NCBI GenBank assembly: GCA_902774655.1
Contig: CACYJD010000001.1
Location: 1 to 45,595, forward strand
Source of the DNA: an uncultured Erysipelotrichaceae bacterium
Lineage (GTDB): Bacteria; Bacillota_I; Bacilli_A; RFN20; CAG-826
Direction: 5' to 3'
Length of the DNA stretch: 45,595 nt
Of the stretch, positions 7,304 to 42,395 are shown in pieces. Under the pieces are notes generated by a model. The model saw only the letters and a program-made list of their open reading frames with translations. It was not told where the DNA came from and did not search any database. The position numbers and the translations under genes were made by a program. Numbering within the stretch: position 1 is the first letter of the stretch; the number at the start of each line of letters is the position of its first letter.

Positions 7304-7313
7304 GCTCTACTCC

Positions 7314-10575: not shown

Positions 10576-10589
10576 AAAATGAATTCCTC

Positions 10590-11192
10590 CTAGATTTTTG
10601 TTTTGATTTTTAGTCTCTTTACTAAGACTGTTCTGCGTTCTAAGTTCTCTGCATCATCCAATGCCTTTAGTTCAGCATCCGCCAACTCTAAAGAGCGAGC
10701 ACTTGCTTGGATAGAAGTTTGGTCGTAGGCAGGCAAGTCCACAACACTTACATCAAAGAGCCTATCAATGCCTGTAATAGTTCTTTTTGGAAGCTTACCG
10801 CTTTTATCCCAGCTTTGACTTTTAACAGTGAAAGCAAATGACATCTTGTCTAATAGTCCAGCTTCGATACATTTGAAGATGTCTCTATTGCTGGTTGTGT
10901 CGATGAGTTCGGCACGGATCTTCAAGCCTTTTTCATCAACTTCTAAAGAAAGAGAACCATTTCTGGTCCTCGCAATAATGAGTGTGCTGTCGTTATGGTT
11001 GTATTTAAACGGCACATCCTTCATATTTGTTTCTTTTAATGCTTGAGCATCGATGACTTCGGTGAATCCATGTTCCTCTGTGCCAATGAGTGTTTCCTCA
11101 TTAAACACGATTGCATAGCCTTCCACTATCATCTTTTTGTTTTCTTCATCTGCTCTACTCTCGAGAGATGAGAATCTAACTTCTTTATTCAT
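10590..11192 (-). CDS. HK97-family prohead protease
   Basis: 200 aa from the ATG at 11192 (RBS AAGGAGGAAATCGACAAAGATG). Motifs: VEGYAIVFNE, KYNHN and KMSFAF. Confidence 0.8.
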   Translation of the reverse strand: MNKEVRFSSLESRADEENKKMIVEGYAIVFNEETLIGTEEHGFTEVIDAQALKETNMKDVPFKYNHNDSTLIIARTRNGSLSLEVDEKGLKIRAELIDTTSNRDIFKCIEAGLLDKMSFAFTVKSQSWDKSGKLPKRTITGIDRLFDVSVVDLPAYDQTSIQASARSLELADAELKALDDAENLERRTVLVKRLKIKTKI

Positions 11193-12435
11193 CTTTGTCG
11201 ATTTCCTCCTTGGATTTAGGTTTCTTAATGAATTTATCAAGTTGATAATCGTTAGCTTTATCCGCATCAACATAGTTGAGTGATTGCAAACGTCTACTAC
11301 CACCCTCAATAGGTTCAAAGCCAAGCAAGGCTCTTGATTCATTGAGAGAAAGTATGCCAAGACCCATCAATTTCTCAATGGCCTGGACTTTAGTATTCCA
11401 ACTAGCATATTGAAGTCTTTCGGAATAAAAGATGATTTGCTCACCCTTCTCCAACTGGCCTCTAGTTAATAATGCTTTTGAGAATGTCTCTGATAAGGCA
11501 ATCGCTATACCCTCGATAACCGATTCGTAGAAAGCGTTATATTCGTTTTCGTTGTACTTGTTATCAAAAATAGAGTCGCTAACACCAAAGTAAGAGATGA
11601 TCTTCTTTTGTAGGAAAGTGAGTGTCGTACTGTCCACTAACTTTGGGTCAGTGTTTAGCGGCACATAATCGCTCTTTAAATCAACAGGGACAATGGAACT
11701 ACCACCATCACTAGTTGCCTCTTTTAAGGCATCATCAAACTCTTTCTTTTGAGTAGCTTTGTCTTTTTCAGATAAGATTCCATTTATTTTTAATAAACCT
11801 TTGATTTGGAAACTTGTTTTAATTGCGTTATCCAAACCCTGAAGAACGGAATCATTTATTTTGATAGTCTTTAGCAATGCAGCATGATCGCTTATCGCAC
11901 CATTACCACCGAAGACATCATTTATTCCATAGAATCTGCGAAGATGAATAACGGACTCGTATGGAAGCGTGAAACCTTTTTTATCAGAAAAATAAAAGCG
12001 GAGATACATTGCTCCACTCTCATCTTTAAGGACCTCAACCGATGTTGGCTTTAATGGCCATAGCTCTCTGAGCTCATAGGTTTCATAATCATAAACTGGA
12101 TAAATAAACGCATTGTTATTTAAGTAAAGAAGAGTCACCACTCGATAAATGAAATCGTAAGGTGTCATTAAAGGGTTAGGTTGAAACTTGAGTAAATAAC
12201 TTAAGTTACCATTCTTCTCTAACACCGTTTTATCATCTTGAGTTTTGACATATCTTGGCTTTAACTTTGCTGCATGAGTAGCAATTCGATCAATGCAGAT
12301 CTTTACCACATCTGACATGTTGATATTGTTTCCAAAGTCTTGAAAGATATCTAATGTCGATTTAAAGACTCGAGCATCATAGTTAACAGGAGCCACTACT
12401 TTTTTCTTGCGTTTAAAAATGTCAAAGAATGCCAT
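11185..12435 (-). CDS. Portal protein (HK97-type)
   Basis: 416 aa, between the terminase and the protease. RBS is TTAGGAGGTAGCTATG. Confidence 0.85.
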   Translation of the reverse strand: MAFFDIFKRKKKVVAPVNYDARVFKSTLDIFQDFGNNINMSDVVKICIDRIATHAAKLKPRYVKTQDDKTVLEKNGNLSYLLKFQPNPLMTPYDFIYRVVTLLYLNNNAFIYPVYDYETYELRELWPLKPTSVEVLKDESGAMYLRFYFSDKKGFTLPYESVIHLRRFYGINDVFGGNGAISDHAALLKTIKINDSVLQGLDNAIKTSFQIKGLLKINGILSEKDKATQKKEFDDALKEATSDGGSSIVPVDLKSDYVPLNTDPKLVDSTTLTFLQKKIISYFGVSDSIFDNKYNENEYNAFYESVIEGIAIALSETFSKALLTRGQLEKGEQIIFYSERLQYASWNTKVQAIEKLMGLGILSLNESRALLGFEPIEGGSRRLQSLNYVDADKANDYQLDKFIKKPKSKEEIDKDE

Positions 12436-14227: not shown

Positions 14228-15703
14228 TTAATCATCCTCCCTCACAATGCTGAATGTTCTATTTGTTCCAACATTATTTGTGGAATATGTTTTGAGCTTA
14301 ACGGTTGATACTTCACCACTACTGAATGAAATAACACCTGTATCATTAATGACTTGGCCAACTGGTACAGGCATGAAGTTACCCCAAGCACTTGGAATGT
14401 AATCACCACCAGAGATATCAATCTTGAAGGTTGTATCTGAGAGGTATTCATAGGTAAAGTTAACCGCATTGGCATCAATCATAATGCAACCAAATCCAAC
14501 GCTGAATTCGAGGTCGATAGAAATTGAACTATTCTCGTAATGGAAGAACTTTCCTGCTAATGGATCGTTTGCTCCAACGATACCGATAGTCCAATTTTTA
14601 TTTGTTGCGATATCTAAGTCCTCTTCCTCTAATCTGTCATAGACAACTTGATGGATAGAGATAACTTTTGATGCCTGACCTGATAAATCCTTCAGGTTTC
14701 TAAACATTTGGATGACTGACTCTCTGGTCAACGAGGTGCAGTTACCAAAGTTAGCGTTCACGTTGAAATTACTTTGTAAAGAGATCTTAGTTAGCAACGG
14801 ACAATCCTGAATCGCTTCCATAGGGATAGCAACATTGATTGTGTTAGGGAACCAGATTTCATTTAACTGAGGACATCCCTTAACAACCGCTGTACCACCA
14901 CTAAAACTTTGGAGTCTATCAGGTAAATAGAGCTTCTTAAGTTTTGGAATGTTCCAGAATGCATAGGATGTGAGAGATCTTAAATTTGATTCAGCACCAA
15001 AGGTGACATACTCGCATCCACATCCACTTAAGTTATATTGGCCCCAAGTTGATAACGAAGATGGGAAGTTAATATCATCTAAGTTTTCAATACGATAAAG
15101 AGCATAGTTTTCCAAAGTCGCTAACTGACTACCAGGTTCGAATTCGATATGTGTGCAACCACTTAAGTAAAAAGTGTGTTGCTTAATCGTAGTCACTGTG
15201 CAAGGAACACTAACCGTGAATTCGTTTGTAGCTTCTGCTAAAAAGTTAGTGGTAATAAAACCAACACCCTCTGGTATTTCAAAGTGATCAAATGATCCTT
15301 CGACTAATTGTGAGAGCATCTTAAACTCTTCAGAAGTATGAATAATTCCTAAGTTTCCTTTAAGGACCGTGGCCACGATAGGCTCAGACGCATAGATGTA
15401 GTTAGCTGTAATCGTACTATCACTATTAGCGACTTCATCACATGCGACAAAGCTCATCTCCCATGCACCTTCATAAGCTGTGATGGCTTTAGGGATTTCA
15501 AACACATTATCGTGGACCCTATAGAGGTAAGTTGCTCTTGCATGGGTGAATTTTAAGTAATGATATGTACTATCAATTTCTGCATCCACTTCAAATAAGA
15601 GTTTCACTCTTTTAGATTCACGATAGACGGATATTTCAAATGGTTCTACATCTGATGTAAGCTTACCGTCTTTACCAACGTGGATATTAATTTCATATGC
15701 CAT
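14228..15703 (-). CDS. BspA-type leucine-rich-repeat protein
   Basis: 491 aa. The central part shows irregular ~22-25-aa repeats of the LRR_5/BspA style (HTFYLSGCTHIEFEP, LENYALYRIENLDDINFP, LTSYAFWNIPKLKKLYLP, AIQDCPLLTKISL). RBS is TTAGGAGGATAATTCAAATG. Confidence 0.7.
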   Translation of the reverse strand: MAYEINIHVGKDGKLTSDVEPFEISVYRESKRVKLLFEVDAEIDSTYHYLKFTHARATYLYRVHDNVFEIPKAITAYEGAWEMSFVACDEVANSDSTITANYIYASEPIVATVLKGNLGIIHTSEEFKMLSQLVEGSFDHFEIPEGVGFITTNFLAEATNEFTVSVPCTVTTIKQHTFYLSGCTHIEFEPGSQLATLENYALYRIENLDDINFPSSLSTWGQYNLSGCGCEYVTFGAESNLRSLTSYAFWNIPKLKKLYLPDRLQSFSGGTAVVKGCPQLNEIWFPNTINVAIPMEAIQDCPLLTKISLQSNFNVNANFGNCTSLTRESVIQMFRNLKDLSGQASKVISIHQVVYDRLEEEDLDIATNKNWTIGIVGANDPLAGKFFHYENSSISIDLEFSVGFGCIMIDANAVNFTYEYLSDTTFKIDISGGDYIPSAWGNFMPVPVGQVINDTGVISFSSGEVSTVKLKTYSTNNVGTNRTFSIVREDD

Positions 15704-19947: not shown

Positions 19948-21234
19948 TTATTTTAAGAAGTCATCATTGTCCAAGACTTCAAAATCCTTGATGGTTTCAA
20001 GCGGAATCTTCTCGCCATTTCTTAATAAAAAACACCCTTCATACGAACCGGTGTTCCTTAAGTATCTTTTAATGATTACATCCACATACTTAGTGTCAAG
20101 TTCCATCAAGTAAGCAGTTCTTTCAATTTGCTCACAGGCAATTAATGTTGTACCACTACCACCAAAGAGATCTAAGACAAGCTCACCTCTACGGCTGCTG
20201 TTTTCAATAAGTTTGGTTACGAGTGGTATTGGTTTCATTGTTGGATGGAGTTCAGAAGATTGTGGTCTATCGTATTCAAGAATAGTCGTTTGAGTTCTAT
20301 CCTCTACAAAGTAATGGGCCGCACCTTCTTTCCAACCAAACAAAATTGGTTCATGCATGTAATGATATGGACATCTTCCTAAAACAAAGTTGTTCTTTTT
20401 CCAAATTAAACATTCGGATAATTTAAACCCTGCTTCTTTAAAAGCACCACGAAAGTTATATCCTTCAGTGTCTGCATGGAAGACATAAATCGAACCACCA
20501 GGTTTGACGTTGTTATAGAAGTTCACCATGACCTTATCAAGGAATTCCCTGAAGGATGAATCATCCATGTCGTCGTTAAGAATGGTTCTATCAGTCATAC
20601 CACAGTCATATCCACCACGTTCCTTATATTGTTGACCCTTTTTGCCTATGGCAACATTATAAGGCGGGTCGGTTTCAATTAAGTCGGCTAGCTTACCATC
20701 CATTAAAACATCAACGTCTTCTTTTACAGTGGAATCACCACACATGACTCTATGCTTTCCTAAGACGTAAACGTCGCCTTTAAGTGAATATGGGTTTTCA
20801 GGTAAAGCTTCATCTTCATCAAAATTATCATCTTTAGGTTTGTCTTGGAGTTTATCCATTAAATCTTCAAATCCAAATTGAAGAAGATCCATATCGATGT
20901 TTTTGATTTCAACGGCTAACTTACCCATATCCCATTTGGCAATTTCAGCTGTTTTATTATCAGCAAGTCTTAAAGCCTTAACTTCATCTTCTGATAAGTC
21001 GTCAACCACAATACATGGGACCTCTTTTAATCCTAATTTTTTAGATGCAAGTAAACGTGTATGACCTGCGATAATTACATTATGAGAATCGATGAGAATA
21101 GGATTTCTAAAGCCAAAGGCTTTGATTGAATTCGCTACCGCATCAACTGCCTCATCATTAAATCTTGGGTTGTTGTCATAAGCGATAAGTTCATCAATCT
21201 TCTTTATTACTATCTTCTGACTCGACATTGGCAT
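19948..21234 (-). CDS. ParB-like N-terminal domain fused to an N6/N4 DNA methyltransferase (phage orphan MTase)
   Basis: 428 aa. The N-terminus (IDELIAYDNNPR...AGHTRLLA) is ParB/Srx-like. The MTase motifs are IETDPPYNV and a C-terminal DLFGGSGTTLIA. Confidence 0.85.
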   Translation of the reverse strand: MPMSSQKIVIKKIDELIAYDNNPRFNDEAVDAVANSIKAFGFRNPILIDSHNVIIAGHTRLLASKKLGLKEVPCIVVDDLSEDEVKALRLADNKTAEIAKWDMGKLAVEIKNIDMDLLQFGFEDLMDKLQDKPKDDNFDEDEALPENPYSLKGDVYVLGKHRVMCGDSTVKEDVDVLMDGKLADLIETDPPYNVAIGKKGQQYKERGGYDCGMTDRTILNDDMDDSSFREFLDKVMVNFYNNVKPGGSIYVFHADTEGYNFRGAFKEAGFKLSECLIWKKNNFVLGRCPYHYMHEPILFGWKEGAAHYFVEDRTQTTILEYDRPQSSELHPTMKPIPLVTKLIENSSRRGELVLDLFGGSGTTLIACEQIERTAYLMELDTKYVDVIIKRYLRNTGSYEGCFLLRNGEKIPLETIKDFEVLDNDDFLK

Positions 21235-30614: not shown

Positions 30615-32291
30615 TTAATTATTCTTTGCTCTGCCCCATTGATCACCGAACAATGCCCCATCTCCAGAATGAAGTTGAATTACTTGTTTTTCTATAGCAA
30701 TATTTGTTATCGTTCCATCTGGATTAACTTCTTTATATCTATCAGGGTTTTCAGCAACAGCAAATATCTGTCTTTCAGTTTTTTGGGCATATAATTTAAA
30801 TAAATCGCGAGCAGTAATATCTTCGATATTAGTAAATAGAATCGAGTCGTGTCCAAAGACTGGTAGTTTTGTATTCTCCATTATTGCCAAATCCAACAAA
30901 CAAACTGCTTTATACCTAGTTCCAGTTCCTGTATCACCTGGAGTGTAGAAAGCATAACTTTTAAGTTCGTTAAATTTGAAAATTGGAGCAGCTACTCTTT
31001 TATCATCTTTTTCTCTAATGTGGGTATTGTTTTCCCTCATTGATGAATTTAGTTTGTTTTCGATTGTTGTCGTATATGTTTCTGTTAATTGCACTAAGGT
31101 TTTTTCTGCTTCTTTATATCCTTTTAATGCACTTTCGCTATCTTCAAAATTTTTGATGGCGGTTCCAAGCCTATCTATTTCCTTTGATAAATATTCGCGT
31201 TCTTTAACATACGATTCGGAAACAGTAGGCACAGTCTTATATTCTTCTAATTGAGTATTAATTTCAGCAATTCTTGCATCAATTAAAGAAATTAAATTCT
31301 CAACTTCTTTATTTGCTTCAATGATATCTTCCAACAAATATCCATAGACATCTTTATGGAATTTTTCATATTTTTTAATTTCAGGAATCTTGACATCTTC
31401 AAAGAACTCTTTTAAAGCACCATACTTCAATTGATACTCTTCTTCAGATAGTAATTCATCATTATCATTAATATCAGTTAATTTCTTTTCTAACGTTTTT
31501 CTTCTTCTTTGGAGTTTTACTTTTTCTTTGTTAAGACGCGTTTTTTCGGTGGCTTCTAATGCCTCTTGGTCATTTGAATTATGGATATTGTCATAGTCTA
31601 ATTGTTCTAATTGCTTACGCAAATCAGCTAATTGAGCCACCATTTTTGCTTTTTCTTCTGCACTTATAGCAATTGGAGCAATATTATGTTTTCTAATGTT
31701 GTCGTATCCCTTTTTTAAATCTTTTTTAGAATCGTAATCTGCCTTTGTAGATTCTATCGGTTTAAACATTCCGAACATCTTTAATAAAACGCTCATTCCA
31801 TCATAGTCAGATTCCCTAATATGAGCGTTAATTGGTCTCCATTCGTTATAGTTTTTCTTATTATAAATTCTAAAATATGGTCCAACCCATTCTCTAAACG
31901 ATAGGTCTTCACCGTTTTTTAGACCATAGAAATTTACAAGGTCTTCCTTAAACTGTTTATTGGTTATTGTGTTTCTTGTCTTATATTCGCTGTCACAAAT
32001 GTCCACTCTTTCTGGGTTTTGTGTGTTTCTTTTATAAAATCTTGATTTGCCATCGAATTCAAATTCAAAGCAAATATCGTGATGGCCCACATGTTCAATA
32101 GTTTCTTTTTCTTTTTGTGGATAATCATCTCCGCCAAAACAAAAATCAATAATCATCAACAAAGTTGATTTACCTATAGAGTTTGTTGCTCCTTTTTCAC
32201 CGAGGATTACATTTAAACCATTATGAAATCTAATTGGTTCTCTAGGAACGCCATGATCAATAAACTTATCGCATTTAATTGTTTTTAACAT
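30615..32291 (-). CDS. Coiled-coil ABC/SMC-like ATPase (DUF2326-like; ATPase of an ABC-three-component-type system)
   Basis: 558 aa from the ATG at 32291. N-terminal Walker A GEKGATNSIGKST; a ~250-aa K/E-rich coiled coil in the middle; a C-terminal Walker B-like LPVFGHDS. Confidence 0.65.
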   Translation of the reverse strand: MLKTIKCDKFIDHGVPREPIRFHNGLNVILGEKGATNSIGKSTLLMIIDFCFGGDDYPQKEKETIEHVGHHDICFEFEFDGKSRFYKRNTQNPERVDICDSEYKTRNTITNKQFKEDLVNFYGLKNGEDLSFREWVGPYFRIYNKKNYNEWRPINAHIRESDYDGMSVLLKMFGMFKPIESTKADYDSKKDLKKGYDNIRKHNIAPIAISAEEKAKMVAQLADLRKQLEQLDYDNIHNSNDQEALEATEKTRLNKEKVKLQRRRKTLEKKLTDINDNDELLSEEEYQLKYGALKEFFEDVKIPEIKKYEKFHKDVYGYLLEDIIEANKEVENLISLIDARIAEINTQLEEYKTVPTVSESYVKEREYLSKEIDRLGTAIKNFEDSESALKGYKEAEKTLVQLTETYTTTIENKLNSSMRENNTHIREKDDKRVAAPIFKFNELKSYAFYTPGDTGTGTRYKAVCLLDLAIMENTKLPVFGHDSILFTNIEDITARDLFKLYAQKTERQIFAVAENPDRYKEVNPDGTITNIAIEKQVIQLHSGDGALFGDQWGRAKNN

Positions 32292-32505
32292 AATGAACAA
32301 CCCCTTCCAATAGCTCAATTTTTCCTAAAACAAATAGACAATCGAGCGTATCTATAAATTCGCCTCGGCTCTCGAAAGACGATTTTGTTTTGTTGTAGAG
32401 TTCTTTAACAGAATAATCACAGTCTTCTAAAGGCTTTAAAATGACAGGAAACTTCGATAAGCAACTGTTTTTGTAACTAATAAATTTACTCGGAAGTTTC
32501 ATCAC
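32275..32505 (-). CDS. 76-aa helical protein, putative middle component of the ABC-3C-type system
   Basis: It overlaps both neighbours (by 20 nt and 17 nt), which indicates translational coupling. No catalytic motif was seen. Confidence 0.5.
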   Translation of the reverse strand: MMKLPSKFISYKNSCLSKFPVILKPLEDCDYSVKELYNKTKSSFESRGEFIDTLDCLFVLGKIELLEGVVHYVKNN

Positions 32506-33718
32506 TCAACACCTCACAATGAACTAAAAAATAACATGTAATTAAATAGCATGTTTCAGGATCCTTCTGTCCGTCAGGCAAACAATCATTTAACTTTGTC
32601 GCGATTTGGTTTATTACTTCATCTTCACTCAAGTGAAGACTGTAAAAATAATGGTCAGACCAATTCTTTATTTTTTCGCCAAATACAGTTGACCCATTTT
32701 GAGTCTTTTCTTCATAAGAAGTAAAGCAACTATCAATATCGTAATAATCATCAGCAATTCTCTTTTTGATTCTGTTTCTAGAATAAGGAATTGTGTTTTT
32801 CATTTTTTCATCTATTCGTTTGGCTTCCGTAGTTAATGGCTTTTTATCTCCATCGAAATGGCCTAATAAATAATCAGCGACCCTTGTTATTCTTTCCTTA
32901 AAGAATGTTTTATCCATTGTTTTGTCGATGGTCGAATATTTAATCGCTTCTCTTTTTGTCTTGTATAAAAGTTTATAGTCTTCAACATTTGGACTACCGT
33001 GATAAAGTCTATAGTGTCTAGCACAAACCGCTATTTTGTTTGATGAGGCTTCTACATCACTTGGCTTATAAATGCCACTAGTTTGAAAAGTAAACTTTGT
33101 TGCTTCATCAATTGGATTAGGATAAATATGCACTATTTCATAGTTTTTAATGTGCCTACCTTTATATTCAGGAGCAAGTATATCTTCACAAAACGGGCAT
33201 CTTCCTTTCATTTCTTCAATAAAGTCATAATCAAGAGCATCTGGTTCATTATCAACATGAAGAGGTCCTTCTATCGCATTACGATAAAAATCACAGAATT
33301 CTTCAGTTACATCAATTTGTGTAAAAAACTTTTCACAAGCAATCGAACATGCGTGGCAAAAAACATCAAAGTCCGCTGCGTATGATTCAGCTATATTTAA
33401 ATCCTGGTATGCAAAAGCAATGGCCCTTTTGTTAATTGCCCTAACAAAGAAACTAAAAAGAGCAATAAAATCTATAGGCTGTGGAATTTGCGATAGCAAA
33501 CGAGGATTGATTAGTTTCGGGTCGCTAGCCCTACCAAGATCGCCATCAAATAGTTTTCTGCAATTGCTGTCTTCTTCGTTTCTATAATCTAAATATTTGG
33601 GATGTTTTAGAGCTTTGAGAAGACTACCAACAAAAACAGCTTTATTTTCATAAGCTGGAGATAATGATTTTTTTATGCCGTGGCAGAACTCACAAAATTT
33701 GATAACAATGTCCTCCAA
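32486..33718 (-). CDS. Putative effector of the ABC-3C-type system with an HNH-like nuclease motif
   Basis: 410 aa. Residues ~174-240 read CPFCEDIL...YEIVHIYPNP...NKIAVCARHYRLYH (CxxC...H...N...H...H). The start is a TTG at 33718 with no clear RBS, so the start is uncertain. Confidence 0.5.
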   Translation of the reverse strand: MEDIVIKFCEFCHGIKKSLSPAYENKAVFVGSLLKALKHPKYLDYRNEEDSNCRKLFDGDLGRASDPKLINPRLLSQIPQPIDFIALFSFFVRAINKRAIAFAYQDLNIAESYAADFDVFCHACSIACEKFFTQIDVTEEFCDFYRNAIEGPLHVDNEPDALDYDFIEEMKGRCPFCEDILAPEYKGRHIKNYEIVHIYPNPIDEATKFTFQTSGIYKPSDVEASSNKIAVCARHYRLYHGSPNVEDYKLLYKTKREAIKYSTIDKTMDKTFFKERITRVADYLLGHFDGDKKPLTTEAKRIDEKMKNTIPYSRNRIKKRIADDYYDIDSCFTSYEEKTQNGSTVFGEKIKNWSDHYFYSLHLSEDEVINQIATKLNDCLPDGQKDPETCYLITCYFLVHCEVLSDETSE

Positions 33719-33909
33719 ATAATAAAGTCCTATGAAAGTCCGATTGGTCTCATTGTCAGAGACCTTTTTTAATTTTCTAACGCTATGAAATGCTATTAAC
33801 TTTAGTTAGGCAAACGACTTTAAATCTAATTATAGCATAAAGATTTGTAGGATTAATGCCTAAATATCCAGCACGCGTGTTGGGAGCATAAGAAAGGAGA
33901 ATTCAAGTT

Positions 33910-34047
33910 ATGGAGTCTCAAAACCCATTTCTAAACAAATATCCACCTTCCTTCGCTTCCGAAGAAGAAGACTGGAATAACTATCGTGATGAAGAACTTC
34001 TTCATGATGCTCAACTTAAAGAGCGTGAAAAGCTAAAGAAGGACTAA
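33910..34047 (+). CDS. Small acidic ORF (45 aa), hypothetical
   Basis: Not in the supplied track (below its cutoff). AAGGAGA RBS lies 8 nt before the ATG. Translation: MESQNPFLNKYPPSFASEEEDWNNYRDEELLHDAQLKEREKLKKD. Confidence 0.35.
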   Translation: MESQNPFLNKYPPSFASEEEDWNNYRDEELLHDAQLKEREKLKKD

Positions 34048-34285
34048 TCACAAACGTCACCTTTTACGCCACTGATTATCTTGGCGTGGAGGGGCAACAA
34101 TTAAGGTGATTGATGAAAGGCATGCCGCTTATGGACATCAACCACCTCTCTACATAGGCAATGACCATCCATAAGGTCGTTCCGATTCAAAACATAGCGA
34201 GGCAACTCACTACTTGAATTCGAACGTTTCTTTAAGCATGGTCGGTTTCATTCATGAGTACCTCGCGGAAAGCATAGGTACTTAA

Positions 34286-34867
34286 ATGAAAATTACTGTC
34301 AATTTAGAAACTGAAGGATTAGTTGAAAACGATAATATCTTCACTCCTTCACCAACAAGAACAGCCGCCATTACTGTTAAAGAACTTAATGGCAAAACTA
34401 TTTATCTTACTCCTAAAGAAGCTGATTCCTATAGGAGACTTCAACAACGCTTATGGCAACAATCACAAAGGGAGGGAAGATGCATAGTCTTCTCAGAACG
34501 TTATGGTGCTAAAGTATGCCGTGGCAACTGCTCCCAATGCGAAAAAGCACGTGACCGTTATCCATTATCAATTGAAGCTTTGACTGAAAAAATAGGCCAC
34601 GAGCCTAATACTGGCGAGTTTGCTGATAGGCAAGAAGCTGAAGATCCAAGAAAAATCTATGAGCGCAAAGAAACAATGATGTTTATCAAAAAGGCCATGG
34701 ATGAAATTGGAGCTAATGTCTTCGATATCTGTTGGAGAAGAATTGTCTTGGAAGAGTCAATTCAAATTATTGCTGATGATTATGGCATCAACAGAGAAAC
34801 GCTTCGCAAGATGATTATAAAATGGACAAAAATACTCCAAGATAAACTTGCTTGGCTTAAAAACTAA
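34286..34867 (+). CDS. Sigma-70 region-4-like / HTH DNA-binding protein with a Cys cluster (putative regulator)
   Basis: 193 aa. The C-terminus ESIQIIADDYGINRETLRKMIIKW is HTH-like. The central part has CRGNCSQCEK. The RBS is weak. Confidence 0.45.
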   Translation: MKITVNLETEGLVENDNIFTPSPTRTAAITVKELNGKTIYLTPKEADSYRRLQQRLWQQSQREGRCIVFSERYGAKVCRGNCSQCEKARDRYPLSIEALTEKIGHEPNTGEFADRQEAEDPRKIYERKETMMFIKKAMDEIGANVFDICWRRIVLEESIQIIADDYGINRETLRKMIIKWTKILQDKLAWLKN

Positions 34868-34951: not shown

Positions 34952-36349
34952 CTAATCGCCATATCTTCCATTTATTACATCAAAAATATAATCACTATTT
35001 AGCCAGAAACACTGCTTCGTATATTCCGTGGCACCAGTTAATGCATCTGGTACTGGTAACGGATTAGTATCAGAAGCATTTAAACCGTGTGGTCTTATAT
35101 GAAAGTAGCCGTTTTGTGATGCCTTAGGAAAATTATTTAATCTAATTTGACGACCGCTTGATAATGTTTGGAAACCTCTAACGATTTGTCCAGTGCTTAA
35201 AATCCTTTTTAGTTCTTCAAAGACTTGTCTTCCCTCTGTGTCTAATATTTCTTCTGGAATTGACCAGAACATAGTTTTAGTAAAAACATACTCGCCATTA
35301 ATTTTATGGAATATAGCAAAAAGGAACTTTTGGTTTATCATAGACTCCCTAAAACTACTATCTTCCCATTCTTCATTAACAACATCAATGAAGCTGAAGG
35401 CCGGAAAGGACATGTTCTCTCTAATATATCCTTCTTCTTCAACTCTTATAGTTTTTAGTGTTATGTTTGCTTTTTGGAATTCGTCTAACTTATTGACCTT
35501 TCCCGTTGCACCAAGCATGTAAGCGATATATCGTTCAAACCTATCTTTTGATTCAACCATTCTTCCAAAGCAATTAATTAGATCGCTTTCAGAGTATCCT
35601 ATAAAAGGTTGCAGTCTAGAAATAACAATATCTTCAAATGTTCTTGCGCTAAGTTCAGCGGCATTTGTTATTCTCTCAACATCTTCATTGGTCATCAAGT
35701 TTCTAATAACTTGTGTCATATAACTTGGTTTAAGAGAAAATTTTCGTGGTTTTAAGTCTATTCCAAAAAGATTAGATGCATATCTATCTAGTTGTCCGTG
35801 TCCAGCACCTGAAGTACATGCCGCTAAATAGTTAGTGTCACGTTCTGAAATATTTTCAGGATAGCCACTTTGAATTTTTGCGCTTAATATTTCATAGTCT
35901 TTTTTAATTATTTCGATATCTTCTGGAGAAAATCTATGAAGAAATCCGTGAATCAATCTCATCTCGCCATATGGCCTTCCTTCTAAATACTCATACAAAG
36001 CAAAAAGAAGATTTTGGCATTTATGCCATACGTAGCTATTTTCAAAACTAGTGTTAGAAGTTTCTTCGTAACTAAAAGAACATAAAGGAACTCTTTCTTT
36101 AAAAGTTACGCCAGCTCTTTTTCTTAAGATGCCTGTAGTCTTTAGTTCTATTCCTAGATTAGGAAAATCGGCATTGTGATCAGAATTGATAGGGTAATGA
36201 AAAACGCCCTCTTCTACTATTTGGCCTAGAACACCTTTGTTGCCGTTACCAACCAATCTATGATTAACATCGAGTTCATAAAAAGTTTTACCAATAGCTG
36301 GTTCAAACTGCATCATTAGCTCTTCAACAGAATTGTACTTAACACTCAT
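34952..36349 (-). CDS. Sau3AI-family (tandem MutH-like) type II restriction endonuclease, predicted GATC specificity
   Basis: 465 aa. N-terminus NKGVLGQIVEE...DFPNLGIELKTT is MutH/Sau3AI-like. The segments MSFPAFSFIDVVNEEWEDS, FWSIPEE, HIRPHG and TKQCFWLNSDYI match my recollection of R.Sau3AI. Confidence 0.8.
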   Translation of the reverse strand: MSVKYNSVEELMMQFEPAIGKTFYELDVNHRLVGNGNKGVLGQIVEEGVFHYPINSDHNADFPNLGIELKTTGILRKRAGVTFKERVPLCSFSYEETSNTSFENSYVWHKCQNLLFALYEYLEGRPYGEMRLIHGFLHRFSPEDIEIIKKDYEILSAKIQSGYPENISERDTNYLAACTSGAGHGQLDRYASNLFGIDLKPRKFSLKPSYMTQVIRNLMTNEDVERITNAAELSARTFEDIVISRLQPFIGYSESDLINCFGRMVESKDRFERYIAYMLGATGKVNKLDEFQKANITLKTIRVEEEGYIRENMSFPAFSFIDVVNEEWEDSSFRESMINQKFLFAIFHKINGEYVFTKTMFWSIPEEILDTEGRQVFEELKRILSTGQIVRGFQTLSSGRQIRLNNFPKASQNGYFHIRPHGLNASDTNPLPVPDALTGATEYTKQCFWLNSDYIFDVINGRYGD

Positions 36350-36488
36350 AAAAATAGTCTATCAAAGTTGAGTGTTCTTTTACAGCACGCATTTACGCAC
36401 GTATATAACAATAAATTATCTAAAGAATTTATTTGATCTTTACATTTTTTCCTTGATCCTGTATTATCTTTAGTGTAGACTTAAGCAT

Positions 36489-37742
36489 ATGAAAAAGACT
36501 GTTATTGAATTATTCGCAGGTGTTGGTGGGTTCAGAGTTGGACTCAATAACATCACCACTATTGGAGAAGATGGTAGAGCCATAGAAAAAGGTCCATGGA
36601 AATTTGTATGGGCCAATCAATGGGAACCATCAACTAAAACTCAGCATGCTTTTGATTGCTATAACATGCGTTTCCCACACGCGGTCGATAACTCAAATAT
36701 TGATATTTCTAAAGTAGACAAAGCGAGCATACCCGACCACACGCTACTCACAGGCGGGTTCCCGTGTCAGGATTACTCGGTCGCACATACACTCTCACAC
36801 TCACATGGTATCGAAGGCAAAAAAGGTGTCCTTTGGTGGCAAATCAATGAAATCTTGCAGGTTAAAAGACCACCATTCGTTTTGTTAGAAAATGTTGACC
36901 GTTTAGTTAAATCGCCAGCAAGACAAAGAGGACGTGATTTTGGTATCATGCTCCGCTGCTTATCTGAAGCTGGATATGCAATGGAATGGAGAATCATTAA
37001 CGCAGCTGATTATGGTCATCCACAACGCCGTAGAAGAATCTACATATTTGCCTTCCATAATAGCACCAAACACTATAAGGAAATGGCAACTTTAACTCCT
37101 GCTCAAATCATCTCTAAAAAAGGTGTGTTTGCTAAAGAATTCCCAATCGAATCATTCGATGAAAATAAGATAAAAGTATTTGATTTTGTAGAAAAATATG
37201 GGGATTTAGTAGAGGTTTCCGATAAATTTAAAGCAGAATTCGAGAATGCAGGATTCATGATCGGCAATAAGGTTTACACTGTTAAGACCAAACCAATCGA
37301 AGAAGCTCCTATCACTCTCGGACAAATAGCAGAAAAAGACGGAGTTGATGCCCACTACTTCTTAAACGAAAACCAACGCAAAAAGTATGAATATCTCCGA
37401 GGTTCAAAGAAAATTCCTAGAAAAGATAAAAATGGATTTGAATATATGTATTCAGAAGGAGCGATGAGTCCTTACGATGAATTATCACTTCCAGCTAGAA
37501 CGATGCTAACTTCCGAAGGAACTACTAACAGAAGCACACATATTATTAAGGATCCTAAAGAAGGCAAACTTAGAATCTTAACACCAGTTGAATGCGAAAG
37601 AATAAATCAATTCCCTGACAACTGGACAAATTCCGGTATGCCTGAGAAGAGAAGATACTTCATGATGGGTAACGCACTGGTGTGTGGCATCATCAAAAAG
37701 ATAGGAAATCAACTTAAAAAGATTATAGAAAAAGAGGACTAG
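36489..37742 (+). CDS. DNA cytosine-5 methyltransferase, M.Sau3AI-like
   Basis: 417 aa. Motifs: ELFAGVGGF (I), GGFPCQDYS (IV), LLENV (VI), QRRRRIYIF (VIII), GNALV (X). WANQWEPS...QHAFDCY is as in M.Sau3AI. It is divergent from the endonuclease gene. Confidence 0.9.
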   Translation: MKKTVIELFAGVGGFRVGLNNITTIGEDGRAIEKGPWKFVWANQWEPSTKTQHAFDCYNMRFPHAVDNSNIDISKVDKASIPDHTLLTGGFPCQDYSVAHTLSHSHGIEGKKGVLWWQINEILQVKRPPFVLLENVDRLVKSPARQRGRDFGIMLRCLSEAGYAMEWRIINAADYGHPQRRRRIYIFAFHNSTKHYKEMATLTPAQIISKKGVFAKEFPIESFDENKIKVFDFVEKYGDLVEVSDKFKAEFENAGFMIGNKVYTVKTKPIEEAPITLGQIAEKDGVDAHYFLNENQRKKYEYLRGSKKIPRKDKNGFEYMYSEGAMSPYDELSLPARTMLTSEGTTNRSTHIIKDPKEGKLRILTPVECERINQFPDNWTNSGMPEKRRYFMMGNALVCGIIKKIGNQLKKIIEKED

Positions 37743-37767
37743 TTAATTAGCTAATCCTCTTATTATT

Positions 37768-38220
37768 TTATTCTGTGAAGCTTTTTTCTATCCATAAAAG
37801 CCATTTTTTTACAGTTTGATATCTTCTTTCATAGAGCTCATCACTGTATTGCGGATATTCTGCTTTGATTATGTCTATGACTTCTTCCTTTTCCAATTTG
37901 ACTCCATATACTTTTTCTGTAACATAGACTGTTCCAAATACTTTATCGGACATCAATAACCTTATAAGTTCTATTCTTTGCTTCGTTGGAGAAAGGTTTC
38001 TAACATAACATCCCACCTCAGTGAAATGCTTATCTTTAGAAATAAGCCCTAAATACATCGCCGCAGAAAGATAGTACATCACTTGTCTATCGGTGACATT
38101 TTCCAAAACAAAGCTAATGTACTTCTTATCACTTAGTTTAGATTCGTCAGGAATATTAATTAGTGATATTACCTTTTCAAAATCATCGGCTTGAGGGAAT
38201 GGTATATCATTTCTTTCCAT
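37768..38220 (-). CDS. 150-aa protein of unknown function, third gene of the DGQHR-Dam operon (possibly a winged-helix DNA-binding protein)
   Basis: It overlaps the Dam-like gene by 14 nt. It is predicted helical and shows no catalytic motif. Confidence 0.5.
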   Translation of the reverse strand: MERNDIPFPQADDFEKVISLINIPDESKLSDKKYISFVLENVTDRQVMYYLSAAMYLGLISKDKHFTEVGCYVRNLSPTKQRIELIRLLMSDKVFGTVYVTEKVYGVKLEKEEVIDIIKAEYPQYSDELYERRYQTVKKWLLWIEKSFTE

Positions 38221-39046
38221 AAATTAGAACCTCTCTTACTGTTCTACGCCCACTATTATTACCGCTAATATTTCTATGGACATCTAAATAATTAAATTTA
38301 TATTTTGTTTTTGGGAATATTTCATTAACAAAAGCTGTGGAGTTATTGCTAATTATAACAATCGCTCCTTTTTCAATCAGCGAATCACAAAGATTTTCTA
38401 GTCGTTGTAAATCTTCCCTTGAAAAACCAGTGCTTGTGTATGATGTGAAGCCGGATGGCTCATAATCATATGGCGGATCTAAATATACGTAGTCGCCTTT
38501 TTTGGCACCTGAAACTGCATCAATAAAGTCGCAATTAAGAATCTCAACACCAGGTTTATTTAAATAAGCTGATATTTGTCTAATTTTCTCTTCACAAACT
38601 ATTTCATGTTTTCCACTAGTAGTTCTGCCTAATGGCACATTAAAGAAACCTTTAGAGTTAACTCTATACAAGCCATTAAAACATGTTCTATTTAAATAAA
38701 TAATTCTTGCTGCCTTTTTCAAAGGGGACATCTTTTTATAAGAAGGTAATCTATCTAAATCACGAATTTGGTAAAAGTAATCATGAGAGTGCTTTTTATC
38801 ATGTTCTTTTAACAATTTTATAAGCTCTTCTGGATTATCGCGAATTTGGATATAAACGTTATATAATTCTGGATTTAAATCGTTTATTGTAACATTCGGA
38901 CATTCTAAAGCAAAAGTTAATGAGCCGCCACCGAAGAATGGCTCAAATAACCTATGCTTCTTAAGTTCTTCTATATCTATTAATTGAATGATATTAGAGA
39001 CAAGCTTTCTTTTTCCACCTGCCCACTTTAATACTGGTTCCATCAT
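38207..39046 (-). CDS. Dam-family (D12 class) DNA N6-adenine methyltransferase
   Basis: 279 aa. Motifs: LKWAGGKRKL, EPFFGGGS, YLDPPY. Its start overlaps the upstream stop (TAATG). Confidence 0.9.
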   Translation of the reverse strand: MMEPVLKWAGGKRKLVSNIIQLIDIEELKKHRLFEPFFGGGSLTFALECPNVTINDLNPELYNVYIQIRDNPEELIKLLKEHDKKHSHDYFYQIRDLDRLPSYKKMSPLKKAARIIYLNRTCFNGLYRVNSKGFFNVPLGRTTSGKHEIVCEEKIRQISAYLNKPGVEILNCDFIDAVSGAKKGDYVYLDPPYDYEPSGFTSYTSTGFSREDLQRLENLCDSLIEKGAIVIISNNSTAFVNEIFPKTKYKFNYLDVHRNISGNNSGRRTVREVLIYGKK

Positions 39047-41307
39047 TATTGATTTTCAATTAGCCAATCATACACATCTTTAATCTTTTTAAATTCAGAT
39101 CTTGTGATTTGCTTTCCATTATTGATTCTAGACTCAGAATAAGACATGGATTTTAACCAATCTAGAGTTTCGGCCCTATTCTTTTGGTCGTTTGGATTAA
39201 CTAAGACATCCTTTAAGAATGTTGTCCAGTTTGTTTTATAACAAGCTATTTTACAAACATCGTCAAATCCTATCATTTCCCAGAATTCAATGTCCCTATC
39301 AACACCATTTCTAGAGTTTTTGACTTTTAAACTGGCAATATCTCTACTTACTCTAAGAGCCAAATCCTCAGGTATATATTCGTTTTGCCAATTTGCATTT
39401 TCAACAAATTTTTCTTTTATACTATCAATAATCTTTTGTTTGATTTTTGAAACGAACTCGGAAGCTTCAGGATTATAATCCACGCAATACTCATTGATAT
39501 ATTTTTCCAAATCTTCATTGGTGAATTCACTATTATTGTGATTAAAGGCAACCTGCAATGCTCTCCAAGATGTTTCTTTAGCACTACCGCCTTTTGCGGT
39601 TTTAATTTCATTTCTTCTTTCAATTGGTAAATTATTTATAGTATCTGCCAAGGAAACAATCCAATCTTCGCATTTATTCCATAAATCATCAACATCGTAA
39701 ATGACAGAAGGAAGATTGTATTTTTTAATAACCAAATCAACAATATCGCCAATTACTCTTATAACCGCCACCATCATGTTATTTATTGTTAAATAACCGG
39801 CAGAGCCTTTTTCCCATTCTTCTTGGCAGAACTGTTCAATAGTATCTAAACACTTCTTTAGGAATGGATAAATAACATCCGCTGTTTCTCTGCTTTCAGT
39901 TCTATCTAAAACACCATGCTCAGATATTTCGTTCTTTTTATATTTATTAAAGAAGGAGGTCTTTTCAATGGCGTTCTTTAAATATTCAATAGTAATGCAA
40001 CGTCTATCTGTAACTGTATTCTCACCAGTAACAACTCTGCCGTATAGAGGAGAGTCTTTGTCTTCGCCTAATTTTTGACAAATATGAAGAATCACAGCTT
40101 CTTTTCTCTTTGCTAGTTCAGGTGAGTCCCAATTAAGGTCAATAATTAAAGTATTTCTTAGTGATTTAGAAACAGCTTTTTGATTTTCATTAATATCCAT
40201 GAACATTCTTACTTGTTCATCTTTGTCCATATTAACAAAAGCTACTACTGGGACCGTGTTTGATGATGCAAATCTAGATTCTGAGTATCCGTATAATCTA
40301 TGTTGACCATCAATAACATATGCAGATTGGTACTCTTTTGGTAAATGCAATATACCAATTCTAGAAACAGAAGAGGTGTTTTGTGATGCCAAATCGAATT
40401 GAAGGCCCCTCTTTGCATCAATAGAAATAATTAATGAGTTAGGGAAATATCCGCCGTTGTTAACGAACTCTCTAATCTTTTTAAGCCTGTCCTTTTTGAT
40501 TAATCTTTGGTAGGTAGGCATTAAATCGTGATTCGCGTTTGTTCTATGTAAAATGTAAGAAATCTTTAATAAACGTTCTGGCTCAATCAAAAAAGCATAA
40601 TATGTGTATCCGCCCATTTTGCCTTCAATAGCAGGAATCTTTTCATCCATTCCTTTGATTGTTTGGTGAGCAAATAAACTACCTAGTAATTGGTATCTTG
40701 CCGCACTGCCAAGATGATCTACCAAAGCTTTATAGTAGCTTACTGTTTCATCGTCAAAATAAGCAATTTTAGCGTTGGCTAAACGGTCTCTATCTTGAGA
40801 ACCAAGAACGTAGTTCTTTGTGGCAAATATATACTTAAATTTACGTCCTGGATATTCCTTGCTAATTTCTCTAACGAGTCCTTTATATTTACTTTCCATC
40901 TCAGCTATTTCTTGAAGCCAAGATTTATTACGCTCGAATTTTTCAGTTTCCTTGCATTCAATGAATAAGCAGGTTTCATCATCAATAGCAATGACATCTA
41001 ATTGTTTTGTTAAATCTGGGTATTCCTCTGAATATGATAATTTAAAATGCCTATCAGCATTCATGACAGTAAAGCCCATTTTATAGAAAATCATCCATAC
41101 TTCATCTTCGAAAGCATCACCGATTTTCTTTGGCTGCATCATTAAAGCGGAGCCATTTTTATATGTTTTTTTAACAACCCATCCCTGAGATTCTTTAGTT
41201 TGAATAAGTGCCGCATCAAATTTTTCTTCAACACCATCTTTGCTTCTAATTGCCGCTGCAGCTGCCAAAGCTTCACCACTAGCTAAATGTTCCCAGTTCG
41301 TTGCCAT
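39046..41307 (-). CDS. Fusion protein: N-terminal PD-(D/E)xK nuclease-like domain, DndB-type DGQHR (ParB/Srx-fold) domain, and a long helical C-terminal region
   Basis: 753 aa from the ATG at 41307 (RBS GGAGGATGTTTATG). LDVIAIDDETCLFIECK gives D106...E119-x-K121. FPNSLIISI, VIDGQHRLYG (nt 40297-40311 encode DGQHR) and FMDINENQKAV are the DndB-type motifs. Confidence 0.75.
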   Translation of the reverse strand: MATNWEHLASGEALAAAAAIRSKDGVEEKFDAALIQTKESQGWVVKKTYKNGSALMMQPKKIGDAFEDEVWMIFYKMGFTVMNADRHFKLSYSEEYPDLTKQLDVIAIDDETCLFIECKETEKFERNKSWLQEIAEMESKYKGLVREISKEYPGRKFKYIFATKNYVLGSQDRDRLANAKIAYFDDETVSYYKALVDHLGSAARYQLLGSLFAHQTIKGMDEKIPAIEGKMGGYTYYAFLIEPERLLKISYILHRTNANHDLMPTYQRLIKKDRLKKIREFVNNGGYFPNSLIISIDAKRGLQFDLASQNTSSVSRIGILHLPKEYQSAYVIDGQHRLYGYSESRFASSNTVPVVAFVNMDKDEQVRMFMDINENQKAVSKSLRNTLIIDLNWDSPELAKRKEAVILHICQKLGEDKDSPLYGRVVTGENTVTDRRCITIEYLKNAIEKTSFFNKYKKNEISEHGVLDRTESRETADVIYPFLKKCLDTIEQFCQEEWEKGSAGYLTINNMMVAVIRVIGDIVDLVIKKYNLPSVIYDVDDLWNKCEDWIVSLADTINNLPIERRNEIKTAKGGSAKETSWRALQVAFNHNNSEFTNEDLEKYINEYCVDYNPEASEFVSKIKQKIIDSIKEKFVENANWQNEYIPEDLALRVSRDIASLKVKNSRNGVDRDIEFWEMIGFDDVCKIACYKTNWTTFLKDVLVNPNDQKNRAETLDWLKSMSYSESRINNGKQITRSEFKKIKDVYDWLIENQ

Positions 41308-41577
41308 AAACATCCTCCGCTATATATTTTATGTTTATAAACTTTAAGCATTATATCACAAATATAACGCTTCTTCACTATAGTTATATCTTTTTGACCA
41401 GTAGTTATGTTTTTGAACAGTATTGAGAATATGATTTCTTGATTTTTATCAAAAAATGGCCCATTTTGAGGCGGACCATAAATGCTATAATTGTAAAAAG
41501 TTAGATTATATCTAAAGAAAAAGGACTGACACTATTGTATCAATCCTATGTTTCTAAGTTGGTGCCCATGGTCGTAA

Positions 41578-41681
41578 CCTATATGGAAACACATACTGTT
41601 TCACCATAGGTGTATCTGTTTCGTCATAGGGGGTATGTGTTTCACCATAGGTTTTTCAAATAATAGAAATTTTACCATAAT
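41578..41681. repeat. Iteron-like array of a 14-bp motif TGTTTCACCATAGG
   Basis: Direct copies lie at 41597-41610, 41617-41630 (2 mismatches) and 41638-41651, spaced 20-21 bp apart. A degenerate inverted copy lies at 41578-41591 and a partial copy near 41668-41681. Related gtcgtaacctata / gtcgttataaccactacctata segments flank the array. Confidence 0.7.
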
Positions 41682-41807
41682 TTTAAGGTGTCGTTATAAC
41701 CACTACCTATATTGAAATAGTTAAAAATAAAGAAAAAATGAGCATTTAAGCCCATTTTCTGCAACAACCCTCTATCTGTACTTTGTATCAAAGTAATAAT
41801 ACTTAGG

Positions 41808-41881
41808 TGGCAGGGGTGACAAGAATCGAACTCGCATCAGCGGTTTTGGAGACCGTTGCACTGCCATTGTGCTACACCCCT
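41808..41881 (-). tRNA. tRNA-Trp (anticodon CCA), 74 nt with an encoded CCA end
   Basis: Cloverleaf folded by hand. Acceptor AGGGGTG/CACCCCT (7 bp); D stem GCAC/GTGC; anticodon loop CTCCAAA; T loop TTCGATT; discriminator G followed by CCA. Confidence 0.9.
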
Positions 41882-41933
41882 ATATTGCGCTTTGATATTA
41901 TTACATAAATATTTTAAATATTCATCAATTTTA

Positions 41934-42395
41934 TTAATAATTTTCTACGCTTATTAATTCACCTTGGCTATAGACTAATTTCATTTTGAAATAGTTTTCA
42001 TGATTAATCAGCTTTGGTAAGAATGCTTTATCTCCTTCCCACATTGGATAATCATAAATATCTTTGATTGGAATCCATCTTAATTCGCCTTCATTACATT
42101 CGATTAATACACCACTGAAGTCAGTAACTTCATAGACGTACATCATCATTTTTAATTGATCGTCTATAAAAAGGACTTCACCAGCGCATTTTAAAGAATG
42201 AATATTTAAACCTGTTTCTTCTTTTGTTTCTCTAATCGCACATTCATCAATGGATTCGTGAGCTTCTCTTCTTCCACCGACACCAATCCATTTGTTTTTA
42301 TTGATATCGTTTTTCTTTTTATTGCGATATAAAAGAAGATAACAATTATCTTTTTTAAGATAAACAACTGTTGTATCGATAATATTGTTATCCAT
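41934..42395 (-). CDS. Nudix hydrolase (MutT-like)
   Basis: 153 aa. Nudix box: GVGGRREAHESIDECAIRETKEETGL. Confidence 0.85.
   Translation of the reverse strand: MDNNIIDTTVVYLKKDNCYLLLYRNKKKNDINKNKWIGVGGRREAHESIDECAIRETKEETGLNIHSLKCAGEVLFIDDQLKMMMYVYEVTDFSGVLIECNEGELRWIPIKDIYDYPMWEGDKAFLPKLINHENYFKMKLVYSQGELISVENY

Follow-up and report, generated by a model that had tools for sequence, protein, structure and literature searches.

DndI, a DUF262-HNH protein, nicks DNA that is free of phosphorothioate (PT); on modified DNA, PT stimulates its ATP hydrolysis, after which the protein comes off (PMC11662687). DNA stimulates ATP hydrolysis by DpdB, whose DGQQR motif corresponds to the nucleotide loop of ParB and whose dimer may encircle DNA (PMC10164549). 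ATP and GTP are bound by a DndB-like protein (PMC12704722), and the signature motifs of GmrSD-type enzymes are related to the DGQHR motif (PMC4619093). A publication of 2013 noted in general terms that the ParB-like COG1479/DUF262 domain, which it treated as the same as the DGQHR domain, is fused to nucleases, among them PD-(D/E)xK enzymes, and is linked to DNA-modification systems such as restriction-modification (R-M) (PMC3632139). Here, a locus combining a DGQHR domain, a nuclease domain and a Dam-family methyltransferase was analyzed in a 45,595-nucleotide (nt) stretch of DNA from an uncultured Erysipelotrichaceae bacterium (contig CACYJD010000001.1, positions 1-45,595), called the window below. 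It comprises three genes, for a nuclease–DGQHR protein (gene 1), a Dam-family methyltransferase (gene 2) and a DUF7226 protein (gene 3). The data make it probable that the first two form a real, widespread and uncharacterised R-M-like defence module. Most likely, this would be a restriction system gated by nucleoside triphosphate (NTP) and blocked by methylation, which marks self at GATC with N6-methyladenine (m6A).

The three genes and the domains of gene 1 are as follows (aa, amino acids; ORF, open reading frame):

39046-41313, minus strand: gene 1, nuclease–DGQHR protein (ORF list), putative restriction effector
40669-41127, minus strand: PD-(D/E)xK nuclease domain of gene 1, approximately aa 63-215 (residue conservation, Foldseek, PADLOC)
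39742-40632, minus strand: DGQHR domain of gene 1 (DndB/DpdB type, ParB/Srx fold), aa 228-524, putative NTP-binding switch (TIGR03187)
39049-39741, minus strand: C-terminal all-helical region of gene 1, aa 525-755 (helices H541-H753 in the model)
38207-39046, minus strand: gene 2, Dam-family (D12, DpnM-like) N6-adenine DNA methyltransferase, 279 aa
37768-38220, minus strand: gene 3, DUF7226 protein, 150 aa, all-helical

Genes 1 and 2 meet in a TAATG junction in which nt 39046 is common to both, and genes 2 and 3 overlap by 14 nt (38207-38220). The orientation, coordinates and overlaps of the three genes are those given in a preliminary description made from the sequence alone. The longest ORF of gene 1 encodes 755 aa, and a second ATG at 41307 gives 753 aa. 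A GGAGG sequence lies 6 nt upstream of this second ATG, with which the N-termini of the homologues (MATNW/MTNW) align. Because of this spacing and these N-termini, the 753-aa protein of the preliminary description is probably the likelier product.

The nuclease–DGQHR protein and its methyltransferase partner

The NCBIfam model TIGR03187 (DGQHR) matches residues 228-524 of the gene 1 protein with 166 bits (cut-off 58.85) and an E-value of 1.4e-48. Pfam DndB matches at 1.8e-17 and the PADLOC DpdB model at 3.3e-24, the ranges being 1e-9 to 1e-17 for DndB models and 1e-23 to 3e-24 for DpdB models. The scores with the equivalogs of both proteins were far below the cut-offs, namely 42.4 bits against 328 for DndB (TIGR03233) and 83.5 bits against 300 for DpdB (NF041060). 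The DGQHR motif is located at nt 40297-40311, and the D106...E119-x-K121 motif at nt 40951-40998 provides, together with E69, the candidate catalytic residues. These positions and the TIGR03187 and Pfam DndB matches agree with the motifs and the DndB-type domain described previously. In PADLOC, the protein was also matched by CARF_PDDEXK at 4.7e-4. No restriction endonuclease (REase) model of Pfam, NCBIfam or PADLOC matched gene 1, nor did any HNH, DUF1524 or DUF262 model of these libraries, and no PADLOC defence-system model fitted it. A sequence-profile search of the PDB returned nothing, so that no solved homologue was found, and the C-terminal region gave no Pfam, NCBIfam or PDB match and no assignable family.

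An AlphaFold2 model of gene 1 was built from 56 homologues and was confident (mean predicted local distance difference test score, pLDDT, 88.4; predicted template modelling score, pTM, 0.73). It consists of four parts: a small alpha/beta N-terminal unit (aa 1-62), the PD-(D/E)xK core (aa 63-215), a DGQHR/ParB-like domain (approximately aa 222-470) and a long all-helical C-terminal region (aa 474-755). The top Foldseek matches in the PDB were the PD-(D/E)xK nucleases VC1899, Cdn1, Card1, Can2, AF1548, McrC, XisH and EndoMS, with probabilities of 0.8-1.0 and E-values of 0.03-0.9. The ParB-like PadC was found with a probability of 0.96. Among the viral models of BFVD, DndB-like proteins, GmrSD N-terminal domains, sulfiredoxin and ParB proteins were matched with E-values down to 1e-9. 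The model thus supports PD-(D/E)xK and ParB-like folds in gene 1, as the structure prediction proposed in the preliminary description was meant to check. Full-length homology to a characterised enzyme, which would have spoken against the earlier reading, was found in the PDB neither by sequence nor by Foldseek, where the full-length model gave domain-level matches and no full-length analogue.

Residue conservation was evaluated in 71 full-length family members. D335-G-Q-H-R339, Q269-R270 and F371...N375 (FxxxN) are invariant in 71/71, and G575 and W696 of the C-terminal region are invariant in the same alignment. Among the candidate nuclease residues, E69 is present in 68/71 members, D106 in 66/71, E119 in 61/71 and K121 in 60/71; about 85% of members, from different phyla, have kept the E, D and ExK residues.

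Gene 2 is matched by PF02086 at 2.4e-57 and by TIGR00571 (dam) at 1.5e-68, and the FFGGGS and DPPY motifs are present, which bears out its earlier identification as a Dam-class methyltransferase. Among proteins of solved structure, the GATC methylase M.DpnII-1 (DpnM, 2dpm; 1.1e-62, full length) is by a wide margin its closest relative, followed by E. coli Dam (3e-28). Since DpnM is the closest solved relative, the target of gene 2 is probably GATC and its mark m6A.

Linkage of the two genes and variant loci

A homologue search with the 755-aa gene 1 protein gave 3353 matches, and the best 120 of these were nearly all full length, with 46-99% identity. The source annotations of the homologues read only 'DGQHR domain-containing protein' or 'DndB'. 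In a locus survey that included one genome per GTDB species (185,579 species genomes), at least 562 relatives were confirmed. The best 80 of these, used for synteny counts, span at least eight phyla (Bacillota, Bacteroidota, Actinomycetota, Pseudomonadota, Campylobacterota, Melainabacteria, KSB1 and others). A Dam-family gene adjoins the nuclease–DGQHR gene in 76/80 loci according to tblastn, and two further loci have a 349-aa D12 methylase in the Dam position. The remaining two loci are truncated on that side, so the linkage holds in 78/78 informative loci. Isolates with the pair include Paenibacillus macerans, Listeria portnoyi, Enterococcus quebecensis, Clostridium frigidicarnis and Terrabacter sp. 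BE26. The usual order is Dam followed by DGQHR, with junctions mostly of -4 or -1 nt; in the subclade of the window the order is DGQHR, Dam, DUF7226.

All-against-all clustering of the neighbourhood ORFs revealed no broadly conserved gene besides Dam and DGQHR. The pairwise distance matrices of the two proteins are correlated (Mantel r 0.63, p 0.001, 63 loci), that is, the two proteins co-diverge. The conserved unit is therefore a two-gene core and not a trio. The three-gene unit of the preliminary description stands for the Dam–DGQHR pair and falls away for gene 3, which has a DUF7226 counterpart in only 12/80 related loci. The locus, having a DNA methyltransferase with intact motifs, a coupled protein with a nuclease domain and conserved linkage, is R-M-like in the generic sense. 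Homologues of the nuclease–DGQHR protein were not found in the phage collection, and the plasmid collection contained distant homologues only, in a different gene context. No description of this Dam-coupled family, the two-gene core or DUF7226 was found in the openly searchable literature.

Several related loci deviate from the simple pair. In seven of them (L012, L015, L017, L018, L019, L024 and L029), five-gene operons, located at about 90-8300 in each locus, have the order DrmA-like, DrmB-like, NERD-nuclease/superfamily 1 helicase, Dam, DGQHR. K121 is replaced by H in 7/7 of these, and D106 and/or E119 are also lost in 6/7. The seven operons look like a form of DISARM-like system not described so far, with a D12 Dam as its methylase. 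In L066 (Bacteroidota), whose nuclease motif is degenerate, genes for HARE-HTH-AAA, methyltransferase, SIR2 and Ham1 proteins lie directly upstream. Since members with degenerate motifs cluster where the operon carries another nuclease, the sequences argue for the fused nuclease as the usual, but replaceable, effector.

The locus L009 of Pseudobutyrivibrio ruminis CF1b (3468-8271) contains a complete DpnM–DpnA–DpnII cassette followed directly by a nuclease–DGQHR gene without its own Dam, and a single GATC methylation module apparently serves two different nucleases there. Distant long-form homologues with 30-32% identity over residues 27-621 are encoded on alphaproteobacterial plasmids, in the following loci:

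L082 (NC_009426.1, pNL1), 4905-11403: locus of a 770-aa nuclease–DGQHR homologue
L083 (NZ_CP072139.1), 4887-11591: locus of a 770-aa nuclease–DGQHR homologue

In both plasmid loci, the place of Dam is taken by genes for a radical SAM protein, an ATP-binding protein (ATPase) and a short DGQHR protein. This pairing suggests that the same effector design serves another putative modification module, and the two loci may represent a different, uncharacterised DNA-modification/restriction system.

Gene 3 and the surroundings of the operon

Gene 3 matches Pfam DUF7226 (PF23871) at 4.9e-19, and its model is all-helical (pLDDT 94). No significant Foldseek match was found for this model; the closest protein was the BREX DNA-binding protein BrxA (template modelling score 0.43, E-value 2.4), a predicted resemblance that can be taken as a lead only. 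A sequence search of the PDB with gene 3 returned nothing. A single-sequence search recovered close relatives only, and a profile search was needed for the wider family. When carried out exhaustively, it yielded 1348 DUF7226 proteins, and architectures were counted in the top 150 of these: 70 are free-standing, 58 are C-terminal fusions to DUF6996-DUF6997 proteins and five are C-terminal fusions to Dam. The DUF6996-DUF6997-DUF7226 architecture is that of the PADLOC 'REase_II' model PDLC03513 (putative REase), which gene 3 matches, and one such protein sits between D12 and N6_N4 methylases. Some free-standing DUF7226 genes lie directly 3' of a D12 methylase gene and overlap it, in operons with quite different partners, including PbeA-like HKD-helicase and PbeC-like ABC ATPase genes. 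The associations of DUF7226 with D12 methylases are as follows:

Loci L081, L086 and L087-L089: DUF7226 with D12 methylase
Proteins P0178, P0183 and P0189: DUF7226 with D12 methylase

Because DUF7226 occurs in few of the related loci, is fused to Dam and to a putative REase and forms Dam–DUF7226 dyads elsewhere, gene 3 looks like an optional, non-core accessory of a methylase or an R-M system, and it probably assists the methylase by binding DNA or in another accessory role. Since DUF7226 is either fused to D12 methylases or located 3' of them in other genomes, genes 2 and 3 look like a split Dam–DUF7226 modification module. A role of gene 3 as a C-protein-like controller was considered and rejected, as DUF7226 elsewhere forms a C-terminal extension of methylases and of a REase. 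DUF7226 may correspond to the methylase-associated domain 'MTaX1' (PMC10853773).

The other features assigned in and next to the operon are as follows:

41350-41358, minus strand: possible extended -10 promoter element TGATATAAT, about 40 nt 5' of the gene 1 start codon
37732-37761, minus strand: terminator-like hairpin 3' of gene 3, at the operon end and facing the convergent C5-methylase gene
36489-37742, plus strand: C5 cytosine methyltransferase, partner of the Sau3AI-family enzyme (PF00145, 3.6e-63)
34952-36349, minus strand: Sau3AI-family (MutH-like) Type II REase (NF040973 restrict_Sau3AI, 5.6e-126, 421 bits against a cut-off of 300)

The TGATATAAT element was read by eye; the consensus promoter scan did not report it because a good -35 is missing. 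The long upstream region of the preliminary description is present, with about 490 nt between gene 1 and tRNA-Trp (41808-41881), and lies outside the block conserved in relatives, the edge of which is at 41319. An Rfam search over 37600-42000 found only the tRNA. Three direct 15-nt repeats CTGTTTCACCATAGG, spaced 20-21 nt, and an inverted partner are located at 41576-41653, between the operon and tRNA-Trp. These four matches (0.33 expected) lie outside the conserved cassette, and no Rfam family matched them.

The trio belongs to a defence island that has a prophage on one side and tRNA-Trp on the other. The prophage or phage-like region extends from window position 1 to about 30000 and contains genes for tape measure, major head and portal proteins, helicase, primase and DNA polymerase. 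A fusion of ParB_N with an N6_N4 DNA methyltransferase (19948-21234) and a BspA-type leucine-rich repeat protein (14228-15703) are also encoded in this region. Within the window, no integrase was found and no repeat of the tRNA-Trp end that could serve as an att repeat delimiting the island. An ABC-3C-like defence pair at 30615-33718 consists of a 567-aa DUF2326 ATPase (LmuB-like in PADLOC) and a 410-aa ABC-3C CTD11 protein, and a 193-aa ORF at 34286-34867 had no match in any library. Other neighbours are tRNA-Trp, a NUDIX gene and two ABC-transporter ATP-binding genes read as Opp-like.

Sau3AI-family enzymes are GATC-specific, and the Sau3AI-type neighbour is therefore a second GATC-directed module in the same block. 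Window positions 34968-41319 form one 6.35-kb block, common to L002 (550-6892) and L003 (462-6804) at about 76% nucleotide identity. Both are loci of goat-rumen Bacilli metagenome-assembled genomes, and the flanks of the block differ. Exactly five genes make up the block, with the Sau3AI-type REase at one end and the DGQHR gene at the other, so that a module based on 5-methylcytosine (m5C) and one based on m6A, both GATC-directed, appear to move as one cassette.

The observed/expected ratio of GATC is 0.35 in the whole window, 0.30 in the prophage and 0.37 in the island, and that of GCGC is 0.24 in the whole window and 0.17 in the prophage part. These two are the most depleted 4-bp palindromes of the window, with the strongest depletion in the prophage part. 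The depletion of GATC is consistent with GATC restriction pressure and is not specific to the system of genes 1 and 2.

Proposed mechanism, alternatives and comparison with known systems

A mechanism can be drawn by analogy with DndI, SspE and ParB. The DpnM-like Dam methyltransferase would place m6A on host DNA, most probably at GATC. Besides the match to DpnM, the arrangement in L009 and the GATC depletion speak for this site. The DGQHR (ParB/Srx-fold) domain would bind and hydrolyse NTP and, with the C-terminal helical domain, engage DNA, NTP binding making the ParB-like domains dimerise or close on it. An encounter with G(m6A)TC would lead to NTP hydrolysis and release, and unmethylated DNA would keep the effector engaged and be cut by the N-terminal PD-(D/E)xK domain. 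Gene 3 (DUF7226) would be an optional helper of the methylase, for DNA binding or in another accessory role. The preliminary description had already proposed Dam methylation as the self mark and a nuclease/ParB-like fusion as the effector. The linkage, the coupled genes, the co-divergence, the conserved residues and the model uphold this architecture, from which we infer restriction itself. An m6A-dependent (DpnI-like) enzyme was considered and rejected as lethal beside Dam.

Several observations weigh against a methylation-blocked restriction module. The characterised DGQHR proteins, DndB and DpdB, belong to the modification side or are regulators and are not restriction effectors. About 15% of the family (~11/71) lacks the canonical nuclease residues and keeps DGQHR; this makes the ParB-like module, rather than the nuclease, the indispensable element. 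The Foldseek matches in the PDB are individually weak (E >= 0.03), no domain reading m6A or GATC was identified in gene 1, and the neighbouring Sau3AI-type system alone could explain the GATC depletion.

The first two of these observations are also the grounds for regarding gene 1 as a modification-side cofactor or regulator of Dam, similar to DndB (a repressor) or DpdB (an ATPase for base insertion), with a nuclease-like domain used only for DNA binding. The nuclease–DGQHR gene behind a bona fide DpnII REase in L009 points the same way. However, Dam-family enzymes need no partner, the nuclease residues are kept in most members across phyla, and another nuclease is found in the operon where they are lost. 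In L082/L083, moreover, the long form stands beside a separate short DGQHR protein, which is a better cofactor candidate, and a cofactor role of gene 1 is unlikely on balance. A slightly smaller chance is given to Dam and DGQHR being a mark-and-sense core that mainly recruits or activates other effectors, such as helicase-nucleases or SIR2, with the fused nuclease as a minor or back-up activity. The DrmA-DrmB-NERD/helicase-Dam-DGQHR operons, the genes directly upstream in L066 and the locking of the window trio to a Sau3AI-type R-M pair fit such a role, but more than 60 of the 80 loci have no other conserved neighbour and keep the nuclease residues, and the flanks vary between relatives.

The pairing of a nuclease with Dam, next to a MutH/Sau3AI-family gene, also recalls MutH-like methyl-directed strand discrimination or repair, in which Dam would mark the parental strand and the nuclease would nick hemimethylated GATC. 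This is very improbable for a module that is patchily distributed across phyla (at least 562 relatives in the 185,579 species genomes), mobile as a cassette and located in a defence island, with a prophage and an ABC-3C system as neighbours; linkage to MutS/MutL was not seen in the neighbourhood clustering. GmrSD and BrxU, which combine ParB-like and nuclease parts, are Type IV enzymes, and gene 1 could by the same token be an unrelated Type IV (modification-dependent) nuclease that happens to lie next to an orphan Dam. The constant adjacency in all 78 informative loci, with overlapping and co-diverging genes, effectively refutes such chance adjacency, and with Dam beside it a nuclease that depends on m6A would be suicidal; hardly any weight is left to it.

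As for the methylation-blocked restriction module, a more far-reaching version can be put forward tentatively and is less likely than the module as such. It would be a distinct R-M class, in which GATC m6A is read by a ParB-fold NTP switch that might slide on DNA as a clamp and that licenses the fused PD-(D/E)xK nuclease; larger systems (DISARM-like operons and radical SAM-linked variants) would use the same mark-and-sense dyad as a plug-in core.

If the reading as a restriction module is true, this would be the simplest known setting for a ParB-fold nucleotide switch coupling the recognition of an epigenetic mark to DNA cleavage, with two genes and ordinary GATC m6A. The design principle of SspE, DndI and GmrSD would be extended from exotic modifications to the commonest bacterial methylation; to our knowledge, work on effectors that join a nuclease to a ParB-fold switch has so far been limited to systems in which sulfur or hypermodified DNA is read. 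Defence catalogues would gain a family of several hundred or more species genomes that they now miss, and an NTP-dependent GATC-directed enzyme might be obtained. It would also provide the first functional context for DUF7226 and for DGQHR proteins outside Dnd and Dpd. The pair is experimentally very tractable and directly testable in E. coli dam+/dam- strains, although it is no categorical surprise.

The locus was compared with the named systems, and the earlier statement that it fits none of the named types holds for Type II, Dnd, Dpd and DISARM. The locus does not fit PD-Lambda-5 either. A PADLOC search for the trio, which had been proposed earlier, likewise found no system model that fits. 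Gene 1 belongs to no REase family known from classical Type II systems. The REases of these are simple Mg-dependent enzymes that lack an NTPase module, whereas gene 1 has a DGQHR/ParB-fold domain (aa 228-524) with an invariant NTP-loop motif, for which NTP use is predicted. DpnII/MboI-type GATC cassettes share with the locus the DpnM-like Dam; L009 has the nuclease–DGQHR gene at the end of a full cassette of this type, and DUF7226 also forms the C-terminus of a putative REase that has a D12 methylase on one side and an N6_N4 methylase on the other. In contrast to DpnII, MboI and Sau3AI, the nuclease of gene 1 is unrelated, the protein is about 2.6 times the size of DpnII, and it carries an NTPase-type domain. 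With DndB and DpdB, gene 1 shares the domain family (TIGR03187, 166 bits), whereas these are proteins of about 350 aa without a nuclease domain and with roles in modification or regulation. No dnd (dndA/C/D/E) or dpd genes were found in the window neighbourhood, and no TGT-like (DpdA) gene was found among the characterised neighbours.

The Dam–DGQHR pair resembles DISARM in that it lies 3' of DrmA-like and DrmB-like genes in seven related loci, and DrmA/DrmB were found only there. DISARM has DrmMI or DrmMII as its methylase and not a D12 Dam, and the PADLOC DISARM gene sets contain no DGQHR protein. In the window, neither the trio nor the ORFs at 30615-34867 matched DrmA, DrmB or DrmC, and the neighbouring C5 methylase matched the DrmMII model at 3.1e-35, far more weakly than the Type II methyltransferase model (4.6e-172, PADLOC). 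In the comparison with PD-Lambda-5, Dam matched the B model at 8e-19 and MTase_II at 5e-78, and the A model was unmatched.

GmrSD and BrxU also carry a ParB/Srx-fold NTPase domain and a nuclease on one polypeptide, and GmrSD N-terminal domains were among the BFVD fold matches. However, these enzymes cut modified DNA and have no cognate methylase, and their nuclease fold and domain order differ. The obligate methylase linkage of gene 1 therefore implies, unlike GmrSD and BrxU, a methylation-blocked restriction.

The locus is similar to DndI/SspE (DUF262–DUF1524) in the fusion of a ParB-fold NTPase domain to a nuclease and in having a separate DNA-modification module. In DndI/SspE, the self mark governs NTP hydrolysis and hence DNA engagement, and mark-free DNA is damaged by DndI (PMC11662687). 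The fold class is common to gene 1 and the N-terminal DUF262 domain with DGQQR of GmrSD, SspE and DndI, whereas the gene 1 motif is DGQHR and its domain is central; neither DUF262 nor DUF1524 was detectable with the available models. Its nuclease is an N-terminal PD-(D/E)xK domain and its C-terminus is helical, in place of the C-terminal DUF1524 HNH nuclease of those enzymes. The mark also differs, being base methylation by the one-protein Dam rather than backbone sulfur added by a multi-protein machine. Taken together, these comparisons suggest that the module would work like an R-M system and like the mark-sensing ParB-nuclease effectors DndI and SspE, while being built from different parts.

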